Assembly (NCBI GenBank): GCA_964509195.1
Contig: CAZDWJ010000008.1
Span: 61,190-125,189 of the forward strand
Direction of reading: 5' to 3'
DNA: 64,000 nucleotides
Source of the DNA: an uncultured Leptospira sp.
GTDB taxonomy: Bacteria; Spirochaetota; UBA4802; UB4802
Part shown: in pieces, positions 12,135 through 30,811 of the stretch
How the letters are laid out: each line of letters starts with the position of its first letter
Numbering within the stretch: the first letter of the stretch is position 1
Program-made: the position numbers and the translations under genes
Notes under the pieces: model-generated
Database searches by the model: none
What the model saw: the letters and a program-made list of their open reading frames with translations, nothing else
Told to the model about the DNA's origin: nothing

Positions 12135-12274
12135 TAGTATTCCTAAAAATAAACTGGTGAGATAAATCGCTGTGAATTTTTTATCAAATACAAACGAATA
12201 TGTCAACAATATAAAAAGGAGTGTCAATATAAATTTTATCTTTATCTAACAAAGAAGTCATACTACATAGAAAT

Positions 12275-12291
12275 GGGGTGCACCGCACCCC
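12275..12291 (-). terminator. GC-rich hairpin downstream of the zinc metallopeptidase gene
   Basis: GGGGTGC-ACC-GCACCCC lies 29 nt after the stop at 12320. On the minus strand it is followed by ATTTCTAT. Confidence 0.5.
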
Positions 12292-12319
12292 ATCTGCATT
12301 CTAACTTTGTTTGCTTTAT

Positions 12320-13018
12320 TTACTCATCTCTTCCACCAAGCAGTCCAGCTCTGATAAGGAAATACAACAGTGTCACTATTGCGGAAGCTGCAGCTGCCAC
12401 ATAGGTCATGGCGGCAGCGGAAAGCACTTTACTTACTCCTGCAAGTTCACCAGAGCTTACAATGCCATAGCCCTGAAGTATTTCCTTTGCACGGGATGAC
12501 GCGTTGAATTCAACCGGCAATGTAATAAGCTGGAACACCACCACTAAACTGAAGAGCAATATCCCAAGCTTAACAAGCCCAAGTGATCCCATGATAAACC
12601 CTGCAAAGATGATGATCCATGAAAGGTTTGAACCAATTGATGCAGTTGGTGCAATTGCATTACGTAGCACAAGTGGGCTGTACTGTTTAGCATGCTGTAT
12701 GGCATGACCTGTTTCATGAGCCGCAACGCCAATTGCAGCCAGTGAATTGCTATTATATACCTCAGGCGAAAGCCTTACTACTTTCTTGATTGGGTCATAG
12801 TGATCTGATAAAAATCCAGTGGTTTCTTCAACAGGTATATGGGACAATCCATTTCGCTGTAGAATGATTCGTGCAACATCAGCACCAGAGTACCCCGACC
12901 GTGATGGAATTTGAGAATATTTATTAAACGCACTTTTTACCCTGAACGATGCCCAAAGAGAAATAAGCAATACAGGAGCCATCATCATCCAGTATAAAGG
13001 GTCAATCCCAAAAAGCAT
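12320..13018 (-). CDS. zinc metallopeptidase (membrane, PF04298-like)
   Basis: 232 aa. It has the HExxH motif in AAHETGHAIQH and flanking TM helices. A GGAGG SD precedes it. Confidence 0.8.
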   Translation of the reverse strand: MLFGIDPLYWMMMAPVLLISLWASFRVKSAFNKYSQIPSRSGYSGADVARIILQRNGLSHIPVEETTGFLSDHYDPIKKVVRLSPEVYNSNSLAAIGVAAHETGHAIQHAKQYSPLVLRNAIAPTASIGSNLSWIIIFAGFIMGSLGLVKLGILLFSLVVVFQLITLPVEFNASSRAKEILQGYGIVSSGELAGVSKVLSAAAMTYVAAAASAIVTLLYFLIRAGLLGGRDE

Positions 13019-13212
13019 TTGTTACCTCCTTAAATGTTTTAGTATACTCAAGTATTAATGGTTCTATTAATGGTTCCTTCCAACACATCTTTACTTTACT
13101 ACATGCAATGTATAATATACAAAAATTCTTTACATATGCAAAGTATTTTTGTATCAATCCTTTTGTTTTTGTTACAAAATTATTACCAGTTTTATCTCCT
13201 GCTATTTTATAT

Positions 13213-13240
13213 TTGACAGTTACTGGAAATAGTATATATT
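13213..13240 (+). promoter_or_regulatory. sigma70-type promoter candidate for the TPR gene
   Basis: TTGACA (13213..13218), a 16-nt spacer, then TATATT (13235..13240), about 60 nt upstream of the ATG at 13300. Confidence 0.4.
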
Positions 13241-13299
13241 GTAATATACCTTTAATAACCAGGAATATCGCTTAATAATAGTATAAAGGAATTATTGCC

Positions 13300-15156
13300 A
13301 TGAAAAGATCCCTGCCCTTGTTGCTAAGTATTATACTTTCCTGTACCTCCGTTCAGAATGTTCAAAAGGGTAGTATAACTAAACCTGTTTATAAAGAAAC
13401 ATCATTTGAGTTGTACAGTAGAGCGTTATTGCTAAAAAATGAAAAGAATTACTCAGAGGCTATTTCCCTTTTTGAAGAAGCAAGCAAAGAAGGCAGGGAG
13501 TTAGATGCCATTTATTATCAGATTGCTGAATGTTATTATTATCTGTATGATTATGAAAAGGCGATAGATTATGCAAATAAATCAATAGCTATAAATGAAA
13601 ACTGGGATAAGCCTTACCTGTTGCAGTATTCAGTGTATATGAACCTGAATCAAATTGATGAAGGTACTTTAGTACTTGAAAAACTGTTACAGAAAAGACC
13701 TGAGTTGTACAGAGTTCGATTTAATCTGGCTACCGTCTATTATTCACAACTGAAACAGAATATTAAAGCCCGGTATCATTTTTTAAAAATTATCGAACAG
13801 AGTGAATTTGAATCAATTGAATCCTACTACAAAGAGCAATCATATTACTATTTGGGGCATATATATTACAGCTTTGGTGAATATAAAAAATCATATCACT
13901 TCTTTTCAAAGTCATATAATGAAAACCCCGAAAACCATTCCATGGTATATATACTTGGCCTTTTAAATCTTGAGAAAGGGGATATAACTCAGGCAACCAG
14001 CTTACTATCACAATATCTGGATCGCTATCCTAATGATCTCAAAGCCATATTGCATCTTGGCAGGATATATTATATCTATGAAGATATGAAAGCCTTGCAA
14101 GTGTTACGAAAGGCCATCCATCACAGGAGCTCTGAAGGGTTGCTGGCGCGAATGATGTATCTGGAACTTTTGCACAAAGATGATGAAGCTATGGAAATTG
14201 CTCAGAAATTAAAACGCATGAACAGCTCTCTAGATATGCCATATATTACAATAGCGCGTATTGCAATGAGGAAGCAGGACACTGCTACTGCTGCATCAAA
14301 TTTTTATACTGCCGGAGTATTGTTATATCAGAAAAAAGATAATAATGCAGCCATACCCATGTTTATCAAGGCACTGGGGATGGACCAAAATATACAGGAG
14401 GCAAATCTCTACTTAGGTCAAATATATGAAGATTTAAACCAGCTTAATACAGCCATCTATTATTATACTAAAGCAAAAACATCTAAAAATGAAAAAGACA
14501 TTTTACTGAGAGTAGGATATCTGTATGCACTGTTGAAGGATTATACTAAAGCATTTGAATATATGAATGCAGCGCAGGCAATGGATACAAAATATCCTGA
14601 TGCATATTTTTTCAAAGGTCTGGTATATTTAAAGAAAAATAGTTATAGTGAAGCTGAAGATATGTTGCGCAAAGCGGTTAATTTAAAAAAGGATGAAATG
14701 TATTATTTTTACTTAGCATCAGTTCTTGATAAACAGAAAAGAGTGCAGGATACTATCGCCATACTCCAGGAAGCCTGCGATAATGAGCTAAAAAGTGCCC
14801 GTATATGCAACTACCTTGGCTATTTATATGCAGATAATGGCATAAAATTAGATGAATCATATACGCTTATCAGTAGGGCCCTGGAAAGCGAACCAACCAA
14901 CGGTGCATATCTTGATTCGCTGGGGTGGGTATATTATAAAATGGGGAAATATCATGATGCGCTGCCATTATTACTTGAAGCTGCACAGGAATTGGAATTG
15001 GAAGGATACCCTGATGCAGTAGTGTATGAACATATAGGTGATGCCTACAATGCACTGCAATTACAGGATAAAGCTGTTGAGTACTGGAATAAATCATACA
15101 CTCTTGACCCAAAACCTGAAGTGCAAAGAAAGATACATACTCAGAAAGGGAAGTAA
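13300..15156 (+). CDS. tetratricopeptide repeat lipoprotein
   Basis: 618 aa. It has a signal peptide with lipobox LSIILSCTS and many TPR-like A/Y/L-patterned repeats. Confidence 0.75.
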   Translation: MKRSLPLLLSIILSCTSVQNVQKGSITKPVYKETSFELYSRALLLKNEKNYSEAISLFEEASKEGRELDAIYYQIAECYYYLYDYEKAIDYANKSIAINENWDKPYLLQYSVYMNLNQIDEGTLVLEKLLQKRPELYRVRFNLATVYYSQLKQNIKARYHFLKIIEQSEFESIESYYKEQSYYYLGHIYYSFGEYKKSYHFFSKSYNENPENHSMVYILGLLNLEKGDITQATSLLSQYLDRYPNDLKAILHLGRIYYIYEDMKALQVLRKAIHHRSSEGLLARMMYLELLHKDDEAMEIAQKLKRMNSSLDMPYITIARIAMRKQDTATAASNFYTAGVLLYQKKDNNAAIPMFIKALGMDQNIQEANLYLGQIYEDLNQLNTAIYYYTKAKTSKNEKDILLRVGYLYALLKDYTKAFEYMNAAQAMDTKYPDAYFFKGLVYLKKNSYSEAEDMLRKAVNLKKDEMYYFYLASVLDKQKRVQDTIAILQEACDNELKSARICNYLGYLYADNGIKLDESYTLISRALESEPTNGAYLDSLGWVYYKMGKYHDALPLLLEAAQELELEGYPDAVVYEHIGDAYNALQLQDKAVEYWNKSYTLDPKPEVQRKIHTQKGK

Positions 15157-17971: not shown

Positions 17972-18796
17972 TTACAATTTTGTACTTACACCAAAGTCAG
18001 CCCACAGGTGATTTTTTAATTTGCTGGCTTTGCCATTGGCATCACCATCATAGTCAATAAAAAAGTCTCTTGCAATTGTGCGTGCATAATTTACTGCCGA
18101 AAAGAACGTAATGCCTTGATAATCATAAAGTGATGAAAATGTTACTCCGCTGTCACTGAAGCCTTTCCTATCAAAATAGGCATTATTGTAGTATGCTATC
18201 CATATGCCGGCTTTAAATGTAAAATTGTTTGCATTCACCAAATCTTTAAAAAGAGTACCTTTAATATATAGGTCCTGATTGACTGGTGTTTCATCGGCCG
18301 TTTCTTCCACATAGTAATCATAGTATACTTCAAGGGTAGGCACAAAATATGAACTATAACTTGCAATTACATATCCTTCAAAGAAGGATGGATCAACTGT
18401 TGCACCTGCACTATCATAAAATGGATAATGAGTATATTTTACTCCAATAGTGCTACTCAATGAATCTTTACTGTAAGCATATTCAATACCGTAGTCAAAC
18501 TCATGATATGTTTTAGCAAGTTTTCTATCACCTTTTTCAGTTGCCATCAAGTAATCCTGGTTGATACCCACAGTAACATATGCTGTTACTCCACTCAATT
18601 CCAGTCCCACTTTTGGCCATAGAACTCCAGCACCCTTGCCATTTAACTCAATACCACGCCACCAGTAGATACTGTTATAGGTAATGCTGAGCGGAAAATA
18701 TAATTTTTTTTCATCTGAGTAGCTTTTACCTGTAACAATAAAGAGACATGTTACACTAAACAAACATAGAATAAGTGTACTGATACTTTTTTTCAT
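17972..18796 (-). CDS. putative outer-membrane beta-barrel protein
   Basis: 274 aa. It has a signal peptide (MKKSISTLILCLFSVTCLF) and an alternating aromatic/hydrophilic beta-strand pattern rich in Y/G/D. The family is not identified. Confidence 0.5.
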   Translation of the reverse strand: MKKSISTLILCLFSVTCLFIVTGKSYSDEKKLYFPLSITYNSIYWWRGIELNGKGAGVLWPKVGLELSGVTAYVTVGINQDYLMATEKGDRKLAKTYHEFDYGIEYAYSKDSLSSTIGVKYTHYPFYDSAGATVDPSFFEGYVIASYSSYFVPTLEVYYDYYVEETADETPVNQDLYIKGTLFKDLVNANNFTFKAGIWIAYYNNAYFDRKGFSDSGVTFSSLYDYQGITFFSAVNYARTIARDFFIDYDGDANGKASKLKNHLWADFGVSTKL

Positions 18797-19212: not shown

Positions 19213-20190
19213 TCACTTCTTAGCTAGATCGCTAAGAAATACAGTAATAGCTTTTTCTGCTTTGCCCCAGTCAGATTTGACATATTTTGATAACAGGACA
19301 TGATCCCCATTTTCAATTGCAACTTTTCTGCTTAAAGAATGGGGATTTCCATTGTTAAATGTATCGTAAGCCTTCAGCATTGCCTCAACCTGGGCAGAAC
19401 CGTCTTTGTGTTTGTCATCTTTATAATAATAGAGTAGGAGTACAGGACATGAAACTTTTTTGTAAATATCATCATTAGCAATTAGATCTCCAAGATCTAG
19501 CAATGAATGAAGTGATGCCCAGTAATTTTTTTGATACCAGTACATAGTCCAATTATCTTTAGGATCATCATACGGATCATGTCGTTCACGGTAGGTAGTA
19601 AATAGTAACACGGTTTTAAAAAAAGGCCTGAAAAACAGGGCATTCCCTACTGGATTTGCAAAGCGGTAGAATGGTGATACCAGTACAATAGCATCAGGTA
19701 TATCTGGATGCTCTGCGGCAATATAGGTTGCGATGCCTCCCCCCATACTTGTGCCAATGATTACCAGCTTATCTCCCAAAAGTTTTGTCATCTGTGCAGC
19801 TTCTATAGCAGTGTCAAGAAGCTGGTAGTATTCTGTGTTTTTATGATCATCCATGGTGGTACCATGGCCGGGCAATCGCAAATAGTAAGTATTATATTTT
19901 AATTTTTTGGCGATAGTATCTATCACAAATTGGCCCTCACCACGGGAAGCACCATAACCGTGAATGTAGAGCATTGCTATTTTTGTTTTGGGAGCAAACT
20001 TTAAAAGTTTTTCCTCATTGTTAGGTCGAACTCCTTTTTCTTTACTTTCTTTGAGTTTTAATGTGTAATATTCATCAAATGTAGCAGGAAGTTTTTTTTG
20101 ATTGTATGTATAGGTTATATGTGATTGATACGCATCAACTGCAATGAGTGCAGCAATTACAATAGCAAGTCCTATTAATATTTTTTTCAT
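19213..20190 (-). CDS. alpha/beta hydrolase (lipase/esterase-like), secreted or membrane-anchored
   Basis: 325 aa. It has an N-terminal hydrophobic segment, the nucleophile elbow GTSMGG (GxSxG), and a C-terminal GDH. Confidence 0.75.
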   Translation of the reverse strand: MKKILIGLAIVIAALIAVDAYQSHITYTYNQKKLPATFDEYYTLKLKESKEKGVRPNNEEKLLKFAPKTKIAMLYIHGYGASRGEGQFVIDTIAKKLKYNTYYLRLPGHGTTMDDHKNTEYYQLLDTAIEAAQMTKLLGDKLVIIGTSMGGGIATYIAAEHPDIPDAIVLVSPFYRFANPVGNALFFRPFFKTVLLFTTYRERHDPYDDPKDNWTMYWYQKNYWASLHSLLDLGDLIANDDIYKKVSCPVLLLYYYKDDKHKDGSAQVEAMLKAYDTFNNGNPHSLSRKVAIENGDHVLLSKYVKSDWGKAEKAITVFLSDLAKK

Positions 20191-20288
20191 ATGGGTCCTC
20201 CTAAGATAATTATTCGATATCGATAAAATAATAAGATATTGAACAGATTAAGTAAAGAAATTTTTAAAAATTTTTTCTTTTTACTATC

Positions 20289-21482
20289 TTAAAACGCCAC
20301 AGCTGTTTTAATGGCTTTATGTAATCCTTTGTTGCTATTTACCTCAATCATTTCTCTGTACAGTTCAATACTGAATGTATGGGTTACCATAGATTCAATA
20401 TCAGGCATTTTTTTCATAAGCTCAATGGCTTTTTCAAAGATATGTTTTTGTTTTCCTGCTTCCTTTACGTAGCCATATCCATATACGCCTTTGACAGTAA
20501 TAAGTTTTAACCACAGCGGTGTTGGATCAAAAGAAAGCTTGGCAGTGATACCAACAAGGCTTACTGTACCCCCGGCACGTGTAATATTTATGGCTTTAGC
20601 AAAAGTTTTTGTTGAGCCAACCGTGTCAAATACTTTATCAAAACCACCTTGCATGATATGTGGACCCATCATGGGTTTATATATTTTTCCTTTTGTAAGT
20701 TCAACTATCTGCGTTTCATTATCTATCACTGTATTTGCCCCGTATTCTAATGCCTTTTCTCTGTGGAATAAAGAAGGCTCCATAATCGCTATGGTAGATC
20801 TAATATTTAATGCTCTCAGTGCTCGAATGAGCATAAGTCCAATAACACCGCAGCCAATGATACATATGCGGTCAGAATTTTGTGGTTTATTATCATAGAT
20901 TGCCTGCAGAGCCACACTTAATGGCTCAGTAAGCACTGCTGCTTTATCGCTGATTGTAGCAGAAACTACAAAAAGCTGTGCGCGGTGTGCAGGCAGATAC
21001 TGCGCAAAGCCGCCGTTGACTTCTTTACAAATTCCAGTAAACATCCCTGGGGCAATACTGCCTTTAGCAAAGTTTTCGCAGTTTGCAGGCCTGCCATTTT
21101 TACACGCCTGGCATAGCGGTTGCTGTCGCACAACACAGGAAAGCATGGGATTTACTACCACACGCTGCCCTTTTTTTAAACCGGTGCCTCCTGGCTCTTC
21201 AATAGTACCACACACCTCATGACCAATCACGCATGGAAATGATGTAAATGGTGAGGCCATGGGCGAGTCATGAAGCTGTATCAGGTTATAATCACTTCCA
21301 CAAAAGCCACAATAGGTGACTTTAACAATGGCCCAGTTTGTATCAAGAGGCTTTGGTGCAGGAATATCTACAAGTTTGAGTGTGCCAAGTTGGCTTTTAT
21401 AGAACACAGATTTTGAAAATGCACCAAGTGTTTTGAGCGCTATCCATTGTGGGACAGTTACATTGAATTGCAGTGCTTTCAT
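20289..21482 (-). CDS. zinc-dependent alcohol dehydrogenase (MDR family)
   Basis: It has CGFCGSDYN and GHEVCG zinc motifs and GCGVIG Rossmann glycines. The first ATG is at 21482, 13 nt after the upstream stop. The track start at 21503 is TTG. Confidence 0.8.
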   Translation of the reverse strand: MKALQFNVTVPQWIALKTLGAFSKSVFYKSQLGTLKLVDIPAPKPLDTNWAIVKVTYCGFCGSDYNLIQLHDSPMASPFTSFPCVIGHEVCGTIEEPGGTGLKKGQRVVVNPMLSCVVRQQPLCQACKNGRPANCENFAKGSIAPGMFTGICKEVNGGFAQYLPAHRAQLFVVSATISDKAAVLTEPLSVALQAIYDNKPQNSDRICIIGCGVIGLMLIRALRALNIRSTIAIMEPSLFHREKALEYGANTVIDNETQIVELTKGKIYKPMMGPHIMQGGFDKVFDTVGSTKTFAKAINITRAGGTVSLVGITAKLSFDPTPLWLKLITVKGVYGYGYVKEAGKQKHIFEKAIELMKKMPDIESMVTHTFSIELYREMIEVNSNKGLHKAIKTAVAF

Positions 21483-21495
21483 ATTTTCACATTCA

Positions 21496-23151
21496 TCAAT
21501 CAAATTTCAGCGACTGATAAAAAAGTGGCGTTGCCGGGCTTGTCACTGTCGGATCTGTTAAGACATTTACACATGCTGGTTTGCCGCTTTCCTTTGCACG
21601 GATGAGCGCTGGTGCTATCGCCTCATCCTTATCAACAAATTCGCCATAACAACCCATTCCTTCTACAACCTTTTCGTAGCGGCGAATGCCAAGCTCAGCA
21701 CAGGTCACGCGCTCTTTGCCAATTGAAAGCTCCTGGCTGTGTTTGATCATGCCCCACGCACAGTCATTGTTCACAATGCAGGTAAATGGGATATTATGGC
21801 GCACCGCTGTGTCAAATTCAAATCCGTTAAATCCAAATGAGCCATCGCCTGATAGTACCACCACCTGCTTATTCGGATGAATTAGCTTTGCAGCAATGCC
21901 AAAGGGCACCCCCGCACCAAGGCATCCAAGAAGTCCTGCCGATTGTGATATAACACCTGCTTTGTGTTTAGATTGAAATCCTACCAGGCCAAAGTATGTG
22001 GTATCACCACCATCTACCACATACAGAGCGTCGGTGCCAAACACTTCCTGAATCTTTGCAACCAGCCTGATTGGATGAATTGGATCAGAGGAATTCTGTC
22101 TAAGTTTTATTTCACTGTCAATAAATGCGTATCCTGCCTGAGTCAGCATATCAAGCCACTGTGTATGATCTTTTTGTTCAACAAGTGGCAGTAATGCTTT
22201 GAGTGCTGCGCCTGCATCGCCGTAAAGTCCCACATCAGCTTTTCGGTTGCGGTTGATCTCAGTTGGTTCAATGTCAATGCGTATAACTTTTGTGGTTGGC
22301 GGAATTATTGCCCCCGACTGAAAGAGCCAGTTGAAGCGGATACCGGTCGCAACAATGACATCAGCCTGTGATAGTGTCATCATGAGTCCTACGTTGCCAA
22401 TATTCCATATTGATTGGGGATGATTATCAGGAAGCACTCCGCGTCCACCATTGAGCAAAATAAACGGTATGCCGGTTTTTTCTACAAAAGCCTGTAGTTC
22501 CAGCGCACAGTTGCTATATCCTATACCTGAGCCACCAATAAAAAGTGGCTTTTTAGCAGTGTTGATAATATCAGCAGCTGTGTAAAGGCCTGCCATATCT
22601 GGCACAGGCTTGCAATTATCATAACTTATCTCAAATTCAAAATCATCAACCGACCTGCCCAACACATCTGGCGGCAGTTCTAAAAATACTGGACCTGGCC
22701 TGCCACATGTTGCGTGTCTAAATGCTAAGTCTAAATATTCTGGAATGCGCTTTGTATCATAACAGGTAGCGCACCATTTCACAATGGGCTTTACCACATC
22801 AACCTGATTCATCTCCTGCAGTGCGCCTTTGTGGTCATCACGCAGTGGATGACGTCCGCACAGCACCACAACTGGTGCATTATCTAAATACGCATTTGCA
22901 ATGCCGGTAATGCCGTTGGTAAAACCTGGACCTGCGGTTAGAAAACATACTCCGGGATTTCCGGTATACACTGCCACAGCATGCGCCATCATCACTGCAG
23001 CTTGTTCATGGCGTACATCAATCGACCTTATACCATACTGCTGCAACCCGTCTAACAGCGCTTCAATATGCCCACCTGATATGCCAAATGCAAATTGCAC
23101 ATCACGCTTTGACAAATACTTCCCTATCAAATGGCCACCATTTATAGCCAT
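21496..23151 (-). CDS. thiamine pyrophosphate-dependent enzyme (oxalyl-CoA decarboxylase / 2-hydroxyacyl-CoA lyase / acetolactate synthase superfamily)
   Basis: 551 aa. The TPP motif is GDGSFGF..(x)..NNDCAWG. The middle region, RFNWLFQSG...IRIDIEPTEINRNR, resembles OXC/HACL-type members from memory. It has a strong GGAGGA SD. No small regulatory subunit is adjacent. Confidence 0.75.
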   Translation of the reverse strand: MAINGGHLIGKYLSKRDVQFAFGISGGHIEALLDGLQQYGIRSIDVRHEQAAVMMAHAVAVYTGNPGVCFLTAGPGFTNGITGIANAYLDNAPVVVLCGRHPLRDDHKGALQEMNQVDVVKPIVKWCATCYDTKRIPEYLDLAFRHATCGRPGPVFLELPPDVLGRSVDDFEFEISYDNCKPVPDMAGLYTAADIINTAKKPLFIGGSGIGYSNCALELQAFVEKTGIPFILLNGGRGVLPDNHPQSIWNIGNVGLMMTLSQADVIVATGIRFNWLFQSGAIIPPTTKVIRIDIEPTEINRNRKADVGLYGDAGAALKALLPLVEQKDHTQWLDMLTQAGYAFIDSEIKLRQNSSDPIHPIRLVAKIQEVFGTDALYVVDGGDTTYFGLVGFQSKHKAGVISQSAGLLGCLGAGVPFGIAAKLIHPNKQVVVLSGDGSFGFNGFEFDTAVRHNIPFTCIVNNDCAWGMIKHSQELSIGKERVTCAELGIRRYEKVVEGMGCYGEFVDKDEAIAPALIRAKESGKPACVNVLTDPTVTSPATPLFYQSLKFD

Positions 23152-23163
23152 AATTCCTCCTGT

Positions 23164-23529
23164 TTATTTTTTGTTTTTATTAAGGGCGATAGTTACTGCA
23201 TCATTAAACCACTGTATAAAAAAAGCCATTCCCTCAACATGAAGGTTGCCTGCTGCTGCCGCATAAAACGATGCTTCTTGAGTTCCATCTTTCAACACAT
23301 TGAATGCGGTTTTTGCATCTGAAAACACCAGCGCAGCATCATAGTGTGCAAGACGCCGCGTTGAAGAGACCACCCCTTTGTTGAAAATGAATGTGCGGCC
23401 TTTGTTGTTTTTTGTTTTTATTGCAATTTTAACATTTACTGTTCCAATGTAGCGCTTAAATGCATTATTGTATTTTGATGCAAATTTTAAGGCCAGTCCC
23501 AGTATGCGAAGTAAGAGAGCGAACCTCAT
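23164..23529 (-). CDS. small SCP2/sterol-carrier-like protein (tentative)
   Basis: 121 aa and first gene of the operon. The pattern KGRTFIFNKGVVSS...ALVFSDAKTAFNVL...NLHVEGMAFFIQWF resembles SCP2-type lipid-binding domains. This is a weak call made by eye. Confidence 0.35.
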   Translation of the reverse strand: MRFALLLRILGLALKFASKYNNAFKRYIGTVNVKIAIKTKNNKGRTFIFNKGVVSSTRRLAHYDAALVFSDAKTAFNVLKDGTQEASFYAAAAGNLHVEGMAFFIQWFNDAVTIALNKNKK

Positions 23530-23711
23530 TGTACTATCCTTTTATATTTTAAAAATGACAAATACACCTGCAAATGTATAATGAGTTTTGCTATTTTGTA
23601 AATTATTTTTTTTACATATGCTGAAAAAATATGCTTGCGATAAATGCATTTATAGTGTATTATATGTAGAATCTGGAAAAAGCATATAACGCACATAAGA
23701 GGTGATTGACC

Positions 23712-24059
23712 ATGCTTACTGTTTCGGTTAACCAGCTAGGAGATGTTGTAGTAATTGATATAGCAGGTGAGTTTGATATTGATGTAATACGGGATGTAGA
23801 GCAAGCATGGAGCCAGGCATTGAGCAAAAATCCAAAAGTAATAGGATTCAATTGCCTGGAATTAAAATTTATTGATTCATCAGCATTAGGCACTCTGGTT
23901 AAATTTATGAATAGTGCAACAAATAGAAAAATAACATTTACTCTTTTTAATATTTCACCACCAATTGCAACAATTTTTAAAACATCAAAACTGGATAAAT
24001 TTTTCTCAATTAATTCAAAAGAGGATTTTGAGAATAAATATCTTTCTATAAGCAAATAA
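23712..24059 (+). CDS. STAS domain anti-sigma-factor antagonist
   Basis: About 115 aa. It reads VVVIDIAGEFD...LKFIDSSALGTLV (conserved phosphorylatable Ser context). A GAGGTG SD lies 7 nt before the ATG at 23712. Confidence 0.8.
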   Translation: MLTVSVNQLGDVVVIDIAGEFDIDVIRDVEQAWSQALSKNPKVIGFNCLELKFIDSSALGTLVKFMNSATNRKITFTLFNISPPIATIFKTSKLDKFFSINSKEDFENKYLSISK

Positions 24060-24313
24060 CGGGAATGCAAATTAAGTAAAAAACTTGCAAAATAAACCTA
24101 CCATTTTAGAAATATCTTTGTATGACACAATTTTCATTTAGCGCTATTACTCCCGCTAAAGAGTCAGTCATTTTATGGATACATCAAAAACTGCTTTCAT
24201 TCTGACTTTTAAAATTAAAGAAAGCAATTTTTGCATTTATATGTGTCCATACGGGAACATTCTTAAAATTATTTTTTAGAAGTTCCATTATAATATAAAA
24301 TGGAGGATAGATA

Positions 24314-25510
24314 ATGGCAGACAATGATGTTGTAGTTGTATCGGCATGCAGAACACCAATTGGGAGTTTTGGACAATCGCTTAAGGATGTAAAAGCGTAT
24401 GAGCTTGCTGCACTGGTAATGAAAGAAGCATTACAGCGTGCAGGTATTGAAGGTAGTGCGCTGTCAGATGTTATCTTTGGTAATTGCTTAATGGGATCTG
24501 ATGAGGCTAATGTGGCACGCACTGCTGCATTAAAAGCTGGTATACCTGTAGAGGTGCCTGCAACATCGGTGCAGCGACAGTGTGCTTCAGGTATGACTGC
24601 AGTGGTATTTGGCTCTCAGCAGCTTATTGCAGGGGATTCTGATATTGTACTGGTTGGAGGCGTTGAGTCAATGTCAAATGCTCCCTATGTGTTATGGAAA
24701 GCACGATGGGGACTTCGGCTTACACATTCTGAACTTACCGATGCTATGTGGGAATTGCTCCATTCCGGAAGCGGGCTTTTAGGTGAGCCCTATATTATGG
24801 GACAGACTGCTGAAAATCTGGCGGAAAAATATACTATATCACGTGAAGAACAGGATCAGGTAGCGTATGAAAGCCATAAAAAGGCAGCTGCAGCTATTGA
24901 TTCAGGAAGATTTAAGGATGAGATAGTTCCTGTCCCCATACCGCAGAAAAAAGGGGAACCTAAACTATTTGAAAACGATGAACATGTACGCCGTGATGTA
25001 ACACTGGAGAGCCTGGCAGCATTAAAACCCGCCTTTAAAAAGAATGGCACGGTGACAGCAGGCAATGCATCAGGAATTAATGATGGCGCTGCTGCACTGG
25101 TACTTACCACAGCCAAACGCGCACAGGAGTTGGGAGTAAAACCGTTAGCGCGTATTGCTGCAAATGCTTTTGCAGGTGTAGAGCCACATCTTATGGGATA
25201 TGGCCCTGTACCGGCAGTGACAAAGCTTCTTAAAAAAACCGGAAAAAAATTAGATGACATAAACCTGATTGAACTCAATGAAGCATTTGCTGCGCAGTAT
25301 CTTGCCTGTGAGAAGGGATTAGGGCTTGACCGCAGCAAAGTGAATGTGAACGGTTCGGGCATTGCGCTGGGGCATCCTGTTGGATGTACCGGTGCACGAA
25401 TAATTGTTTCGCTCATATATGAACTAAAGAAGCGCAATGCTCAATGGGGGATTGCAACTTTGTGTGTTGGCGGAGGAATGGGCGGTGCAGTACTTGTAGA
25501 GAATATATAG
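24314..25510 (+). CDS. acetyl-CoA C-acetyltransferase (thiolase II)
   Basis: 398 aa. It has the active-site Cys in VQRQCASGM, then NVNGSGIALGHPVGCTGARI and CVGGGMGGA. Confidence 0.9.
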   Translation: MADNDVVVVSACRTPIGSFGQSLKDVKAYELAALVMKEALQRAGIEGSALSDVIFGNCLMGSDEANVARTAALKAGIPVEVPATSVQRQCASGMTAVVFGSQQLIAGDSDIVLVGGVESMSNAPYVLWKARWGLRLTHSELTDAMWELLHSGSGLLGEPYIMGQTAENLAEKYTISREEQDQVAYESHKKAAAAIDSGRFKDEIVPVPIPQKKGEPKLFENDEHVRRDVTLESLAALKPAFKKNGTVTAGNASGINDGAAALVLTTAKRAQELGVKPLARIAANAFAGVEPHLMGYGPVPAVTKLLKKTGKKLDDINLIELNEAFAAQYLACEKGLGLDRSKVNVNGSGIALGHPVGCTGARIIVSLIYELKKRNAQWGIATLCVGGGMGGAVLVENI

Positions 25511-25569
25511 TTTGCTCCTTATGCTAGATTTGCTAATAGTACCAAACTCTATTTAGCAAAGAGCAAAAC

Positions 25570-25608
25570 ATTCACAGGGTGGTTATACACCCTGTGAATG
25601 GTATTTTT
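25570..25608 (+). terminator. intrinsic terminator of the thiolase gene
   Basis: Perfect 12-bp stem ATTCACAGGGTG (25570..25581) / CACCCTGTGAAT (25588..25599), followed by GGTATTTTT. Confidence 0.8.
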
Positions 25609-25735: not shown

Positions 25736-26995
25736 ATGGGCATGACAATTACTGAAAAAATATTAGCTGCACATGCCGGGAAGGAATATGTTGAGCCAGG
25801 CGAACTGATTGAAGCTAAAGTTGATCTTGTATTGGGAAATGATATTACTGCTCCTATAGCAATAAAAGAATTTGAAGAGTTAGGAATTGATAAAGTTTTT
25901 GATAATGAAAAAATAGCACTCATCCCTGACCACTTTACTCCCAATAAAGATATTAAATCTGCTGAGCAGGTTAAAATATTACGGGAATTTGCAAGAAAAT
26001 ACAGTATCATCCATTTTTATGATGTAGGAAGAGTGGGCGTTGAGCATGCACTGCTGCCTGAACTTGGCCTGGTACGGCCAGGTATGTGTATTATTGGTGC
26101 TGATTCGCATACGTGTACCTATGGCGCATTTGGTGCGTTTTCAACCGGTGTTGGCTCAACCGATATGGCTGCTGCAATGGCAACCGGCAAAACCTGGTTT
26201 AAGGTGCCTGAGTCAATCAAATTTGTTGTGTATGGAAAACTGCAACCGTATGTTTCGGCAAAGGATATCATTTTGCATATTATTGGCAGCATTGGCGTTG
26301 ATGGTGCTTTATATAAATCTATGGAATTTACCGGTGAGACAATCCATGAGCTATCAATGGAAGGCAGGATGACCATTGCCAATATGGCGATAGAAGCTGG
26401 TGCTAAAAATGGTATTTTTGCGCCTGATGGTAAGACTATTGAGTATATAAAAAGTCGTACAGGACTGCCGTATACGCTATATTACAGTGATGAAAATGCA
26501 CGATACAGCGATGTAAAAGAATACGATGCATCCACAATAGAACCAACAGTATCATTCCCCCATCTGCCAGAAAATACAAAACCTGCGCGCGAGTCAGGAG
26601 TACCAATTGACCAGGTGGTTATTGGCTCATGTACCAATGGACGTATAGAGGATTTACGGGTGGCAGCTAAGATTCTGAAAGGGCGAAAAGTCCATAAAGA
26701 TGTGCGTTTGCTCATCATCCCTGCTACTCAGGAAGTGTATCGCAAAGCGTTAGAAGAAGGATTGATTGATATCTTTATTGAAGCCGAAGCCGCTGTGTCA
26801 GCTCCTACCTGCGGTCCCTGTCTGGGTGGTCATATGGGAATTTTAGCTGAAGGTGAACGGTGTGTAGCTACAACCAACAGAAACTTTGTTGGCAGAATGG
26901 GTCATCCAAAAAGCGAAGTGTATCTGGCAAGCCCTGCGGTGGCGGCAGCATCTGCGATTTTAGGAAGGATTGCTCATCCAGATGAAGTGAAGTAA
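25736..26995 (+). CDS. leuC: aconitase-family dehydratase large subunit (3-isopropylmalate dehydratase / homoaconitase type)
   Basis: 419 aa. It has the Fe-S ligand contexts [20 protein letters not shown] and [10 protein letters not shown]. The substrate cannot be decided, and no leuA or leuB is nearby. Confidence 0.8.
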
Positions 26996-27032
26996 AAAGA
27001 GCTATCGCCAAAAAATAACGATGAGGTATAGT

Positions 27033-27527
27033 ATGAAGGCATACGGAAAAGTATGGAAATTTGGCAACGATGTAAATACCGATGAGATAATACCTGCACG
27101 ATATCTTAACACATCAGATCCTGATGAGCTTGCACAGCACTGCATGGAAGATGCTGATCCTGAATTTATGAAAAAGGCTAAGGCTGGTGATATTATCGTT
27201 GCTGGGAAAAATTTTGGGTGTGGCTCTTCACGTGAGCATGCTCCCATTGCTATAAAAGCTGCAAAGATATCATGCGTTATTGCCGAGTCGTTTGCGCGCA
27301 TATTTTACCGAAACAGCATCAACATTGGGCTTCCCATCATTGAGTCAGAAGAAGCGGCACGTGACATAGCTGAAGGCGATGAGATTGAAATTGATTTTGA
27401 CTCAGGGGTTATTAAAAATATTACAAAGAACAAAGAATATAAAGCTAAACCATTTCCACCATTTATGCAGGATATTATTGCAAAAGGTGGGCTTATGGCC
27501 AAGGTTAAAGCTGAACTAAAAAAATAG
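27033..27527 (+). CDS. leuD: aconitase-family dehydratase small subunit
   Basis: About 165 aa. It has [21 protein letters not shown] precedes the ATG at 27033. The track start at 27021 is an upstream in-frame ATG. Confidence 0.8.
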
Positions 27528-27528
27528 A

Positions 27529-29616
27529 TTACCGAACCTGCTTTATATTTTTGCCATCAAAGATATCTTTCCCTTGTGCTCTAAACGGGATTATATACCA
27601 TCTGCCTTTTTTATATTTTGCCAATTGAAGCAAAGCAGGGTTTGGTAAATCCTGTATAAAATTAGAACTGAATTCCAGTGATATGGCTACATCACTTTCA
27701 TCATGACGGTTGTACTGGCCATTCAATTTAAGTCGTATCTCAGGTGCATTAAATATAAATGAATTGATGGTGATGGCAGGACCGTTAAGATTAAAATTAC
27801 CATATATTTTTTGAAACTCTAAATTAGCTAGTTTATATTTTAAATCCTGAAGCCATACGCTAAGACCATTCTGTAAGCCAGTGTTAGCTAGTTTACCGTT
27901 TTCTACTGAAACCTCAATCTTTCCGTTTATTCTATCAATAATAGGATCTTTTGGTTCGATAGTTACCTGTAATTGGCCTGATACATTACCAAAAAGGCGA
28001 TTTTCATACTCTTTAAGATACGCACTGATATTCTGCAATCGTAAGTTATTATATTTAGCAACAAGTGTTATTTGCGGATTATCTTGTGAGAGTGTGATAA
28101 CACTTCTACCGGTGACATCTCCTCCAAAAACTCTGGCCGTAAATGATGGTAGCGCAATAATATTTTTTGACATTGTGTAATTGCAGTTAACTTTTTCTAT
28201 CACAAGCTGATCTTTATACAATTTTTGCAAAACCAGTTTGCCCGATAGTTCATAAGGGATGTTTATTTCTTTTTTTGATTTTGCAGGTTGTTCAGGTTTT
28301 TTGGTAAGTATTTTATCCAGGTCAACTTCATCTGCTTCAATGTTTATGGTAAACTTTTTTAGCGAAGAATCTACTGTTGATACTGATATGACACAGGGCA
28401 CAGAATATACTGTTACCTGTATGCCATCTTTCTGGAACTGGTTGTTTTTGACAATAAGGCTTGTTTCCTTTAAAGCTATAATAGCATCTTTTTGGCCTAT
28501 AGAAATATTTGATAGCGTTACATCGGCATCAATTACGTTATTTTTATATTCAAAATTTCCATTTATTTCGCCTGAAATATCGCTTACATCAATATTGCCA
28601 AGTAGTGGAGCTATCTCTCTGATTCTAATTGATGCGTCATTGACTTTGATATTTTTAATATCACCATCAAAGTTAAATAATAACTGGTTTACAACAAAGG
28701 TTGAATTTTCTATTTTTCCTTTTGCGTTGGCGATTGTTACTGTTTCTTTGTTGATATTCACGGTACAGAATAGATTGCTTACAAAAAGCATAGAATTGTT
28801 GCTAAGCTTGCAGCTCCCTGTTACAGTTCCCTGAACACTGTTTTTTGTTATCACCAGATTATGTATTGTTCCTGTGAATATGCGGTAGGGCAGTATGCTT
28901 TCAAGATTATTGCCCCAGCGATATACCCATATAAGGTCACAGTTGTGTAACGATACATTGCCATGAATGCTATAGTCTTTTGAAGTTTTAATTAAGCAAT
29001 CACCAGAGATTTTTCCTCTGTTTTGTGGAAGTATGATCGACAGGTTTTTCAATTCTATATCGTCATCATTCAGCTCTACATTGGTATCTATACTGTATGT
29101 GCCTTCCAGTGGCTCGAGTTCTTTTGGTGGGTTTTGCAGGATGACTGTTGTATTATTAAATAATAGTGATTTGATCTCAGTGGTTATAGTAGATTTTTCA
29201 GCTGATAATAGTTCTTTGATAAGCTTTTCAAGGTTAGATGTTGTAAGTTTGTTTTCAGTATAATAAAGTATATTGATAACAGCATCATTGAGTGAGATAT
29301 AATTGATAATAAATTGTTTTTGCAATAAAGGTGCAAGCTGAAACCTGATTGCGGCATCTTTTGAATGTGCAATAAATGGCTTATTTTCGTCTGTGTCAAA
29401 AATATATAATTCAGTTAATTGGACACCTTTAATACTGTAATCTATTGCTCCTATTTTTACAGGCCTATGTAAAGCATCCTGCAAGGTTTGCACAATTATA
29501 GATTTCAATGTTTCTTTTGGGAAGAAATAGGTAAACGCTGCTGCAAAGGCAACAATCAGTAAGATAACAATAGAAAGAACTATCGCACTGTATTTAACTA
29601 CTCTTGCTGGCTTCAC
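27529..29616 (-). CDS. AsmA family outer-membrane biogenesis protein
   Basis: 695 aa. It has an N-terminal TM anchor and a long beta-rich repetitive body. The position and size fit the AsmA/TamB-like family. Confidence 0.65.
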   Translation of the reverse strand: MKPARVVKYSAIVLSIVILLIVAFAAAFTYFFPKETLKSIIVQTLQDALHRPVKIGAIDYSIKGVQLTELYIFDTDENKPFIAHSKDAAIRFQLAPLLQKQFIINYISLNDAVINILYYTENKLTTSNLEKLIKELLSAEKSTITTEIKSLLFNNTTVILQNPPKELEPLEGTYSIDTNVELNDDDIELKNLSIILPQNRGKISGDCLIKTSKDYSIHGNVSLHNCDLIWVYRWGNNLESILPYRIFTGTIHNLVITKNSVQGTVTGSCKLSNNSMLFVSNLFCTVNINKETVTIANAKGKIENSTFVVNQLLFNFDGDIKNIKVNDASIRIREIAPLLGNIDVSDISGEINGNFEYKNNVIDADVTLSNISIGQKDAIIALKETSLIVKNNQFQKDGIQVTVYSVPCVISVSTVDSSLKKFTINIEADEVDLDKILTKKPEQPAKSKKEINIPYELSGKLVLQKLYKDQLVIEKVNCNYTMSKNIIALPSFTARVFGGDVTGRSVITLSQDNPQITLVAKYNNLRLQNISAYLKEYENRLFGNVSGQLQVTIEPKDPIIDRINGKIEVSVENGKLANTGLQNGLSVWLQDLKYKLANLEFQKIYGNFNLNGPAITINSFIFNAPEIRLKLNGQYNRHDESDVAISLEFSSNFIQDLPNPALLQLAKYKKGRWYIIPFRAQGKDIFDGKNIKQVR

Positions 29617-30811
29617 GTTTGCGTTCTAATGCTGATTTTTTCTTGTAAAAGTTAACAGTCTTTTCAAGCTCTTCTAAATTGGTACAGATGAGCTTGCCTT
29701 CATCCAATGTAATATTTTTGTCCTCAAGAAGTTCCACCACAAGATGATCCCCCTTATCCTGTGGGATTCCAACCATGTTAAGAAGCTCTTTGACTCCAAA
29801 ATCAAAGGTAAAACTTTCCTTGGGTGCAATCTTTACCTTTTGTTTTTCAACCTGAATGAGCAGTGTGTCATACATTCTGCCCAGCGGGTCGCGTATCATT
29901 AAGTTTTCAAGCTGGCGGTATGCTGTCCAAATTCGTTCACTTAAAAGCTGTATAAGCCGTGTTGCAAGCTGTGGTTGCGTCTGAACCATTGTTTCAAAAT
30001 TTTGTCTGTTGATTGCCATAAGTGTGGTATCACCAAACGTGATTGCAGAAGCGCTTCGGGGTCTGTTTTCAAGCAATGCCATTTCGCCAAAGATGTCACC
30101 TGGTTTTAATACCGCAAGCAGCACTTCTTCATCAACAATTTTGGTAATCTTAACCTTACCGCCCTGAATGATGTACAGTTCATCGCCTGGCTCATTTTCA
30201 CAGAATATCATCTGGTTGTCTTTATACACACGTGTGAGACTACTTTTCTGAGGATTTTCCGGGACTTTTAGCGGGGCATTGATTGATTTCAGATGAGCTA
30301 TCGCCTTATCCCTATTTACTCCATTTGGGCAGTGCTGTATATAGCGTTGCAATGCATATGCCGCATGGGGCAGGTTTTTCTTTTTAAGGTAGTATTCGCC
30401 AATTTTAAAAAGGTGTTCGGGATCCTCTTCAACTGCATTGGCAAAGGTAAGGCGGGTGATTGCCTGGTCAAACTCTCTGAGTTTGCGGGAAAAGAATCGA
30501 ATAATCTTCATGGCAACCGCAGGATTTTTCTGAATGAGAATACCAAACTGGTCTCGCTGCACTGAGATAAGCGAAACATCGGTTAATGCGACAGCACTTT
30601 CAATGTGGGCATGGCCACTCATGCAGGGAATAACACCAAAAAAATCACCAGGCCCAAGCAGGGGATTTGTTTCCTGTGCTATTGGATTTTCTTTCACAAG
30701 CTTAACTTTTCCCTGGCGTATGATATAAAAATTATCAGCGTTGCGCTTGCCTTCAACAACAACGAACGAATTTGCTAGATAGTTGACAACTTTAAACTGT
30801 TCCTGTGCCAT
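29594..30811 (-). CDS. tandem cyclic-nucleotide-binding domain protein
   Basis: 405 aa. It has two cNMP-binding cassettes (GPGDFFGV...; KPGDIFGEMALLENRPRSASA). A 23-nt overlap with the AsmA start suggests co-transcription. Confidence 0.8.
   Translation of the reverse strand: MAQEQFKVVNYLANSFVVVEGKRNADNFYIIRQGKVKLVKENPIAQETNPLLGPGDFFGVIPCMSGHAHIESAVALTDVSLISVQRDQFGILIQKNPAVAMKIIRFFSRKLREFDQAITRLTFANAVEEDPEHLFKIGEYYLKKKNLPHAAYALQRYIQHCPNGVNRDKAIAHLKSINAPLKVPENPQKSSLTRVYKDNQMIFCENEPGDELYIIQGGKVKITKIVDEEVLLAVLKPGDIFGEMALLENRPRSASAITFGDTTLMAINRQNFETMVQTQPQLATRLIQLLSERIWTAYRQLENLMIRDPLGRMYDTLLIQVEKQKVKIAPKESFTFDFGVKELLNMVGIPQDKGDHLVVELLEDKNITLDEGKLICTNLEELEKTVNFYKKKSALERKREASKSS

Follow-up and report, generated by a model that had tools for sequence, protein, structure and literature searches.

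Gene order and the conserved cassette

Here we examine a compact group of genes in a 64,000-nucleotide stretch of DNA from an uncultured Leptospira sp. (contig CAZDWJ010000008.1; the whole stretch is referred to as the window). On the minus strand these genes encode, in order, a small protein with a predicted SCP2 fold (S120), an enzyme that depends on thiamine diphosphate (ThDP), a zinc-dependent dehydrogenase of the medium-chain dehydrogenase/reductase (MDR) superfamily, referred to as ADH for alcohol dehydrogenase, and an alpha/beta hydrolase. By comparing the locus with its relatives in other genomes, we found that the first three genes form a conserved cassette. The window has a G+C content of ~38%, and its closest relatives are metagenome-assembled genomes (MAGs) of Spirochaetota. 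An initial annotation of this DNA had described four packed minus-strand genes with gaps of 12 and 13 nt among the first three, and this arrangement is borne out by the coordinates and by the junctions read from the sequence, as are the positions of all six open reading frames (ORFs) of the locus. Pfam or NCBIfam matches support every domain assignment at the locus except that of S120, which has no match. The features of the cassette are as follows.

23164 to 23529, minus strand: S120, predicted SCP2-fold protein of 121 aa, first cassette gene
23152 to 23163, minus strand: S120/ThDP junction ACAGGAGGAATT, 12 nt, read directly; ribosome-binding site of the ThDP gene
21496 to 23151, minus strand: ThDP-dependent enzyme of 551 aa (Pfam TPP_enzyme_N/M/C)
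20289 to 21482, minus strand: MDR Zn-dehydrogenase (ADH) of 397 aa counted from ATG (Pfam ADH_N and ADH_zinc_N), third cassette gene
23530 to 23705, no strand assigned: intergenic region between S120 and the STAS gene, 176 nt, probable cassette promoter region with sigma-70-like matches

The stop codon of S120 (TAA) is followed by ACAGGAGGAATT, which carries a perfect AGGAGG ribosome-binding site, and then by the ATG of the ThDP gene, and this tight spacing suggests that the two proteins are co-translated. The stop codon of the ThDP gene (TGA) is in turn separated by 13 nt from the ATG of ADH. Mechanical ORF calling starts ADH at a TTG at 21503; the ATG start is favoured because N-termini in the family begin MKAL. 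Within the 98 nt that separate ADH from the hydrolase gene there is another AGGAGG as well as a promoter-like site; a search for terminator-like hairpins there was negative. Upstream of S120, the 176-nt intergenic region probably contains the cassette promoter; minus-strand sigma-70-like matches lie at 23602-23573, 23574-23546 and 23561-23533, in a number not above shuffled expectation.

To describe the conserved neighbourhood, a census was taken of 80 loci, one genome per species, whose ThDP homologues are 51-84% identical. Neighbours were detected by ORF calling and clustering, by a tblastn census and by a search of six-frame ORFs with an S120 profile hidden Markov model, and metagenome loci were added separately. 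The census gave the following counts.

S120 immediately upstream of the ThDP gene: 64/80 loci
MDR dehydrogenase adjacent: 65/80 loci
Extended short-chain dehydrogenase/reductase (SDR) nearby: 33/80 loci
VOC/Glyoxalase_4 protein nearby: 22/80 loci
TetR regulator nearby: 20/80 loci
AraC regulator nearby: 7/80 loci
Acyl-CoA dehydrogenase nearby: 3/80 loci
FadD-like acyl-CoA synthetase within 3 kb: 2/80 loci
STAS neighbour: 1/80 loci
Thiolase neighbour: 0/80 loci
Hydrolase neighbour: 0/80 loci

Since S120 and the dehydrogenase accompany the ThDP gene in most of these loci and the thiolase and hydrolase in none, the conserved unit is the S120-ThDP-ADH cassette, and the thiolase, STAS and hydrolase genes are local neighbours within the spirochaete lineage. 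The operon proposed earlier is therefore upheld for its first three genes but not for the others, which the census rules out as parts of the module. Every locus with a ThDP enzyme at ~59% identity or above has S120, and the 16 more distant loci all lack it; for a few of these 16, little or no sequence 5' of the ThDP gene is available. Two gene orders occur, S120-ThDP-ADH and ADH-S120-ThDP, and the stop and start codons of neighbouring genes often overlap. In the clade nearest to the window (84% identity), a D-2-hydroxyacid dehydrogenase takes the place of the MDR enzyme, and in the nearest relatives an aldehyde dehydrogenase lies ~4.7 kb away, neither adjacent nor conserved. The extended SDR is closest to HpnA, to OleD (2-alkyl-3-oxoalkanoate reductase) and to the sterol demethylase SdmB. 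ORF clustering across the 80 genomes revealed no recurrent formyl-CoA-handling, CoA-ligase, hydroxylase or acetolactate-decarboxylase-like neighbour and no recurrent CoA-transferase family, the last of which was not used as an explicit query.

By record title, carriers of the cassette include spirochaetes, Smithella/Syntrophales, Desulfobacterales, Desulfomonilia, Bacteriovoracaceae, Chloroflexi, Saprospiraceae, Bacillota and Actinobacteria. Among cultured organisms it is carried by Desulfatibacillum alkenivorans DSM 16219 and Desulfosarcina widdelii PP31, both of which we take to be hydrocarbon degraders, and it is also found in a MAG of Desulfonema limicola. In open-access papers and bioRxiv preprints we found no description of an SCP2-ThDP-dehydrogenase cassette, and nothing relevant on such a cassette in Smithella or Desulfatibacillum or on 2-hydroxyacyl-CoA lyases (HACLs) in sulfate reducers.

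Individual loci show further variation. In D. alkenivorans DSM 16219 (locus L057, 9674-10969), an SMP-30/gluconolactonase/strictosidine-synthase-like protein follows the ThDP gene in place of the MDR dehydrogenase; upstream come an extended SDR, a second SDR and a TetR regulator. In locus L094, whose ThDP enzyme has 75% identity, ADH is directly followed by a xylulokinase-like FGGY kinase (11884-13503; XylB model 316 bits, cut-off 380). This is a hint that the substrate of some cassette versions may be polyol- or ketose-like and not a lipid. In three deltaproteobacterial loci (L031, L078 and L086), RND efflux genes for a membrane-fusion protein, an RND permease and a TolC-like outer-membrane protein stand beside the ThDP-ADH pair, which fits with the handling of toxic lipophilic compounds.

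The three cassette proteins

The initial annotation placed the middle region of the ThDP enzyme nearer to oxalyl-CoA decarboxylase (OXC) and HACL than to acetolactate synthase (ALS), and several comparisons of the enzyme agree. Its N, M and C domains scored 132, 114 and 107 bits in Pfam. In a phmmer search of the PDB, 2-hydroxyacyl-CoA lyases and synthases (HACL and HACS; entries of the 7pt and 8vz series and 6xn8) ranked first at 248-268 bits, followed by benzaldehyde lyase (BAL) at 244 bits and OXC at 214-222 bits. Acetolactate synthases, glyoxylate carboligase (GCL) and pyruvate oxidase (POX) reached 162-206 bits, with solved catabolic AlsS at 175 bits and acetohydroxyacid synthase (AHAS) at no more than 195 bits. 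Human HACL2/ILVBL, whose sequence was confirmed as NP_006835.2 by exact look-up, scored 238 bits at 30% identity. In NCBIfam, scores against HACL/OXC models were 345.2 for HdaclCoAlyACT (cut-off 600), 254.9 for oxalate_oxc (739.4) and 274.9 for PRK09259 (557), and those against ALS models were 321.5 for TIGR00118 (cut-off 538), 255.1 for TIGR02418 (551) and 274.5 for PRK08617 (510); the top-ranked model, PRK05858, bears the name acetolactate synthase, and none of the curated cut-offs was reached. In a neighbour-joining (NJ) tree with limited reference sampling, the family is monophyletic within the HACL/BAL/OXC group, apart from IlvI and PoxB. As phmmer, the NCBIfam ranking, Foldseek and the tree all put the enzyme nearer to HACL, OXC and BAL, it is unlikely to be a catabolic ALS, and clustering with ALS was not seen. 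Consistent with this, the small gene beside it encodes a protein of predicted SCP2 fold and not an ACT-domain AHAS regulatory subunit, and the enzyme carries an OXC-like IRFNW motif where E. coli IlvI has VRFDD; the RFDDR motif is tied to FAD binding in AHAS. By sequence, then, the enzyme is best described as an uncharacterised subfamily of the HACL/BAL/OXC branch. Its homologues, from environmental sources, number in the thousands; among the best 120 listed, which are spread across phyla, identity is mostly 65-69%.

Structure prediction added less. The AlphaFold2 (AF2) model of the ThDP enzyme is of moderate quality (pLDDT 75), and fold search was discarded as a discriminator, as HACS, OXC, AcHACL, BAL and ALS all matched it with E-values of 1e-45 to 1e-40. 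Its low-confidence stretches, residues 105-122, 463-490 and 538-551, correspond to the LQ loop, the WGMIKH helix and the C-terminal tail; because these coincide with active-site elements, the model is unfit for judging pocket size.

Residues known to hold acyl-CoA offer a more direct comparison. In AcHACL, an actinobacterial HACL, these are Q255, R273, S274, R362, R417, D561 and K564 (PMC8760513), and in HACS the acyl-CoA is contacted by R260 and R400 and ADP by R156 and R276 (PMC11271303). We aligned the window enzyme and 15 family members (51-84% identical) with EcOXC (E. coli), OfOXC (O. formigenes), TbHACS, AcHACL, BAL, E. coli IlvI, PoxB and HsHACL2. An acyl-CoA arginine in an xR(S/A) motif shortly after PDxHP (OfOXC R266, ApbHACS R260, AcHACL R273) is present in all five CoA-dependent references (EcOXC, OfOXC, TbHACS, AcHACL and HsHACL2) and absent from all 16 family members, in which the column holds Leu, Ile, Val, Met or Gly (L256 in the window). 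The family loop at this site is also 3 residues longer in the alignment, a length nearer to that of AHAS and POX. A second CoA arginine (ApbHACS R400, AcHACL R417) is likewise replaced in the family, by Leu, Gln, Ser, Met, Ala, Val or Ile (L389 in the window); it is present in four of the five CoA-dependent references, and because HACL2 is without it, only the first arginine is universal among them. The AcHACL R362 column is occupied by Phe, Leu or Met, and that of the catalytic E493 of AcHACL by Ile or Val, as in HACL2, POX and AHAS. The GRPG and G-x-R motifs, seats of the ADP-contacting arginines in HACS, occur in every reference sequence and so do not discriminate as to ADP or FAD binding.

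The cofactor-activating glutamate, E49, aligns with OfOXC E56 and AcHACL E65, and the Mg/ThDP motif is recognizable as GDGSFGFN at 435 and NND at 461 (span 435-463). G27-H28 corresponds to A28-H29 of BAL and to Gly-His in AcHACL, and L111-Q112 to L112-Q113 of BAL and L127-Q128 of AcHACL; neither H28 nor Q112 varies among the 16 family members. OXC and HACS have Ile-Pro at the former position, and at the latter Tyr-Glu (OXC) or Phe-Gln (HACS). Among the references, an equivalent of His28 occurs only in BAL, AcHACL and HACL2, all of which catalyse retro-acyloin-type cleavage, and is absent from OXC, IlvI and PoxB. The C-terminal tail, TSPATPLFYQSLK, is nearly invariant and, by likeness to OXC, HACS and AcHACL, is probably an active-site lid. 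On this evidence, the ThDP enzyme lacks a hallmark of the CoA-dependent family, and its active site appears most like that of a CoA-independent lyase or carboligase.

The first cassette protein had been called SCP2-like, and its predicted AF2 structure does adopt the SCP2 alpha/beta fold, although no Pfam family matched it, PF02036 included, either at E <=0.01 for the window protein or at E <=1 for a family member. Identity to SCP2-fold proteins is 7-16%. These low values set S120 apart from the SCP2 domains of human SCP2, Yarrowia SCP2, UbiJ and the C-terminal domain of the alkylsulfatase YjcS, as does its linkage to a ThDP enzyme, and not to a thiolase, hydratase, sulfatase or Ubi complex. 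Its best 120 profile matches are stand-alone proteins of 117-134 aa. We considered whether its N-terminal helix is a membrane anchor and ruled this out, as the helix forms the first helices of the modelled fold. From the modelled structure, S120 is probably a carrier of a lipophilic ligand. In Smithella loci L001-L003 and L016 (7668-7862), the S120 homologue was called at 64 aa, covering the C-terminal half only, and locus L014 of the same genus encodes a full-length homologue of ~119 aa; the short form may stem from a wrongly called start or from a frameshift, or may be a truncated version.

The third protein was annotated as an MDR alcohol dehydrogenase, and this assignment holds: PF08240 and PF00107 are present, as are the zinc ligands, with the catalytic Cys in FCGSD (60), GHE (87) and a four-Cys structural-zinc cluster at 116-135. 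A Rossmann motif, GCGVIGL, lies at 210, and the acidic residue in IMEPS (233) suggests that the enzyme uses NAD. Its best PDB matches are 4ej6, (R,R)-butanediol dehydrogenase (6ie0, second), RspB and iditol/sorbitol dehydrogenase. No NCBIfam equivalog cut-off was reached, and by sequence ADH groups with the polyol/threonine/butanediol-dehydrogenase type of Zn-MDR enzymes, which oxidise a secondary alcohol adjoining another polar group.

Possible functions of the cassette

Taken together, these observations lead us to favour, tentatively, the idea that the cassette encodes a CoA-independent, BAL-like ThDP lyase or carboligase that acts on a lipophilic alpha-hydroxy-carbonyl compound, together with a redox enzyme and an SCP2-fold carrier. 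The ThDP enzyme would, without CoA, cleave the C-C bond beside the carbonyl of an acyloin- or alpha-diketone-type compound into two carbonyl fragments, or ligate such fragments in reverse. ADH would convert the alpha-hydroxy-ketone to and from the corresponding vicinal diol or secondary alcohol, or would reduce an aldehyde product, and S120 would solubilise the hydrophobic substrate and present it to the enzyme. Frequent companions of the cassette are an extended SDR of the OleD/HpnA-like type, a VOC/glyoxalase-fold protein and, for regulation, TetR or AraC; the TetR/AraC control favours an inducible, catabolic or detoxifying role. We infer the class of substrate, the direction of the reaction and any physical contact between S120 and the enzyme.

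CoA independence is proposed because the xR(S/A) arginine is missing throughout the family, the second arginine is replaced, acyl-CoA synthetase genes are rare near the cassette and no CoA-transferase recurs. A lyase-type active site is proposed because His28 and L111-Q112 match BAL, the second-best solved relative. That the substrate is lipophilic is suggested by the predicted fold of S120, the HpnA/OleD/SdmB-like SDR, the cultured carriers and the lipase-like hydrolase that follows the cassette in the spirochaete lineage. Finally, a redox partner for vicinal diols or acyloins is proposed because ADH falls in the butanediol/sorbitol/threonine-dehydrogenase subfamily, and the D-2-hydroxyacid dehydrogenase found instead in the nearest clade supports such a role, since it too acts on a hydroxyl beside a carbonyl.

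Several points weigh against this interpretation. Three of the five AF2 models of S120 have pLDDT <50, the SCP2 call rests on predicted structure, and support at the sequence level is weak (hhalign probability 12%). The ThDP enzyme is 26-32% identical to each characterised reference, and its active-site loops are poorly modelled. Its sister group in the NJ tree is AcHACL in 68/100 bootstraps and BAL in 19/100, and Foldseek ranks HACS/HACL first (E ~1e-44), by a small margin. The M468-I469 pair is AHAS-like, so the donor may be a 2-oxoacid, and the public names of the homologues are generic or 'acetolactate synthase large subunit'. A few loci do contain an acyl-CoA dehydrogenase or FadD. Lastly, CoA could still be bound in some other way where the canonical arginine is gone; HACL2 already lacks the second arginine.

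The enzyme could instead be a CoA-independent 2-oxoacid decarboxylase or decarboxylating carboligase, with a lipophilic 2-oxo acid or pyruvate as donor. The aldehyde would then be reduced by ADH, as in an Ehrlich-like pathway or a free-acid alpha-oxidation, or pyruvate-derived hydroxyethyl-ThDP would condense with a fatty aldehyde to an acyloin and, from there, a diol. ThDP decarboxylases paired with a Zn-ADH are a common design, WGMIK (M468-I469-K470) matches the GMVK of AHAS, the D-2-hydroxyacid dehydrogenase of the nearest relatives would yield a 2-oxo acid, and those relatives have an aldehyde dehydrogenase ~4.7 kb off. The distance and lack of conservation of that last gene, however, count against the proposal, as do the conserved His28, which is found in reference lyases but not in the decarboxylating references, and the lower similarity to AHAS, POX and GCL (184-206 bits); we consider it unlikely.

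Quite unlikely, in our estimation, is a CoA-dependent HACL-type lyase with a non-canonical CoA site, which would convert a 2-hydroxy(-2-methyl)-acyl-CoA to formyl-CoA and an aldehyde or ketone, or run in reverse. S120 would then present long-chain acyl-CoAs, which SCP2 proteins are known to bind, and ADH would take the carbonyl product, amounting to a bacterial alpha-oxidation or a one-carbon elongation. In support of this, HACL/HACS and AcHACL are the top sequence and fold matches, 68% of NJ bootstraps pair the family with AcHACL, the GGH motif and Ile at the E493 position are common to the ThDP enzyme and human HACL2, and the RFNW motif resembles the ARLNW of OXC/HACS, seat of an ADP-contacting arginine described for HACS; acyl-CoA dehydrogenase or FadD genes in a few loci point the same way. 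Yet the universal acyl-CoA arginine is missing from all 16 family members within a loop of different length, the scores lie far under the HACL and OXC equivalog cut-offs, no CoA-ligase, CoA-transferase or formyl-CoA-handling family recurs in the ORF clustering, and the thiolase is limited to the lineage of the window. If the ThDP enzyme does use CoA after all, it would represent a new mode of CoA binding in the HACL family.

An ordinary catabolic acetolactate synthase working with a butanediol dehydrogenase in acetoin/2,3-butanediol overflow, with the small protein unrelated, would agree with the public label of the homologues, the name of the top NCBIfam model (PRK05858) and the second-best PDB match of ADH, but is very improbable given AlsS model scores of 255-275 against cut-offs of 510-551, 175 bits to solved ALS vs 268 to HACL, the lack of a recurrent acetolactate-decarboxylase-like neighbour in the ORF clustering, and an SCP2-fold partner, OleD-like SDR and TetR/AraC control that are ill-suited to a hydrophilic C4 pathway. 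The probability that remains belongs to functions outside these readings.

Returning to the CoA-independent lyase or carboligase, comparison with known systems helps to define what is new. BAL of Pseudomonas fluorescens (2ag0) is a three-domain ThDP enzyme of the same branch (31% identity) that shares the histidine and the Leu-Gln pair, has a C-terminal tail of similar length and, like the cassette enzyme, lacks the CoA arginines. It differs in the donor-site pocket, with A480-T481 in place of M468-I469, and has A28 where the family has G27, and the cassette enzyme's substrate is probably aliphatic and lipophilic and not benzoin; we know of no SCP2 partner or linked dehydrogenase for BAL. The HACLs (actinobacterial AcHACL, 7pt1-4; HACL1-type HACS, 8vz entries and 6xn8; human HACL2) have GGH in common with the ThDP enzyme in the case of AcHACL and HACL2, but the ThDP enzyme lacks the xR(S/A) arginine, AcHACL R362 and R417 and the catalytic E493, and has no recurrent link to a CoA ligase or transferase. 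OXC (2c31, 2q27; 222 bits) shares the middle-domain motifs PDNHPQS and G-x-R-F/L-N-W, which are probably what the initial annotation picked up; in contrast, the ThDP enzyme has Gly-His for Ile-Pro and Leu-Gln for Tyr-Glu, and OXC Y483, S553, R555 and both CoA arginines are absent.

That annotation went on to liken the locus to peroxisomal alpha-oxidation, in which phytanoyl-CoA hydroxylase, HACL1, aldehyde dehydrogenase and SCPx/SCP2 take part. Part of this stands, as an enzyme of the HACL/OXC branch, a predicted SCP2 fold and a carbonyl redox enzyme do lie side by side in three conserved genes, joined by a thiolase in the genome of the window only. However, the CoA arginine is absent, the scores fall below the family cut-offs, the thiolase is of the classical acetoacetyl-CoA type and not SCPx and is not conserved with the cassette, and neither a hydroxylase nor a CoA ligase recurs among the neighbours. 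Because the CoA arginine, the cut-offs, the linkage to thiolase and hydrolase and the CoA-ligase neighbours all fail, the analogy is a likeness of parts and not a demonstrated CoA-dependent module. We also rejected orthology with the acetone-activating TDP enzyme of Desulfococcus biacutus/Desulfosarcina cetonica, which is reported at 685 aa and with a B12 mutase, MeaB and an SDR, a gene set that is not near the cassette even in Desulfosarcina widdelii; the two enzymes were set apart by reported size and gene context, not by sequence.

The individual parts thus belong to known superfamilies, and what appears new, by sequence comparison, is a HACL-like enzyme without a CoA site and with an obligatory SCP2-fold partner, in an undescribed cassette. 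To our knowledge, this would be the first such ThDP enzyme with a partner of this kind. If the favoured interpretation is correct, the cassette would define a widespread, unassayed branch of the ThDP lyase/carboligase family, add a route by which anaerobes handle lipophilic carbonyl compounds, provide new biocatalysts for CoA-free formation or cleavage of long-chain acyloins, and correct the blanket annotation of the ThDP homologues as acetolactate synthase. A narrower proposal, which we regard as rather doubtful, is that an SCP2-fold chaperone hands a long-chain alpha-hydroxy-ketone, 2-hydroxy-carbonyl compound or diketone to a BAL-like CoA-independent enzyme in anaerobes. With such a chaperone-fed lyase, anaerobic degraders of lipids and hydrocarbons (Smithella, Desulfatibacillum, Desulfosarcina and leptospira-like spirochaetes) could cleave or form C-C bonds within aliphatic chains without O2, in an anaerobic equivalent of alpha-oxidation that needs no acyl-CoA activation.

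Genes flanking the cassette

Three further genes complete the locus.

19213 to 20190, minus strand: alpha/beta hydrolase of 325 aa (Pfam Abhydrolase_1/6 and Hydrolase_4)
23706 to 24059, plus strand: STAS gene (Pfam STAS)
24314 to 25510, plus strand: thiolase (Pfam Thiolase_N/C)

The thiolase and STAS genes were described as divergent from the operon. Both are indeed on the plus strand, but the gene directly divergent, across the 176-nt region, is STAS, and the thiolase lies a further 254 nt downstream. The thiolase is of the classical BktB/acetoacetyl-CoA type (TIGR01930 486 bits, BktB 492 bits), with QCASG and GHPVGCTG motifs, and not of the SCPx type. The STAS protein is of the anti-sigma-antagonist type, with its Ser in a DSSALG motif; among the relatives, only the closest spirochaetes have STAS next to the cassette. 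The hydrolase had been called a secreted or anchored GxSxG enzyme, in agreement with its hydrophobic N-terminal segment and GTSMG at 146; GDH follows at 295, and it is weakly similar to bacterial monoacylglycerol lipases (PDB, 33 bits). By sequence, it is classed as a membrane-anchored or secreted, lipase-like, lineage-specific accessory outside the conserved cassette.

Both the thiolase and the hydrolase lie beside the cassette only in the window and in a 95%-identical relative, L093. In L093 (4943-8025), a BD-FAE/Abhydrolase_3 esterase, a DkgA-like aldo-keto reductase and an AraC regulator lie between the thiolase and STAS genes; because these three extra genes stand where the window has a 254-nt gap (24060-24313), a recent insertion or deletion has occurred beside the cassette. 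Past the thiolase, at 25736-30811, the window encodes a LeuC/LeuD-like aconitase pair, an AsmA-family protein and a cNMP-binding protein, an order kept near the cassette in L005-L008 and L010, and L093 retains the aconitase pair. These genes are a syntenic backbone that receives variable gene insertions. A Pfam scan of ten further large ORFs of the window (peptidases, a methyl-accepting chemotaxis protein, isoamylase, UxuA, a GH38-like protein, Nramp and others) provided no metabolic context for the cassette.

A perfect hairpin with a 13-bp stem, terminator-like on both strands, lies at 25569-25600, past the thiolase and ahead of the LeuC-like gene. At the other end of the locus, just downstream of the hydrolase (17972-18796, minus strand), is a gene for a 274-aa protein without a Pfam or NCBIfam match, which has a signal-peptide-like N-terminus and may be an outer-membrane protein.

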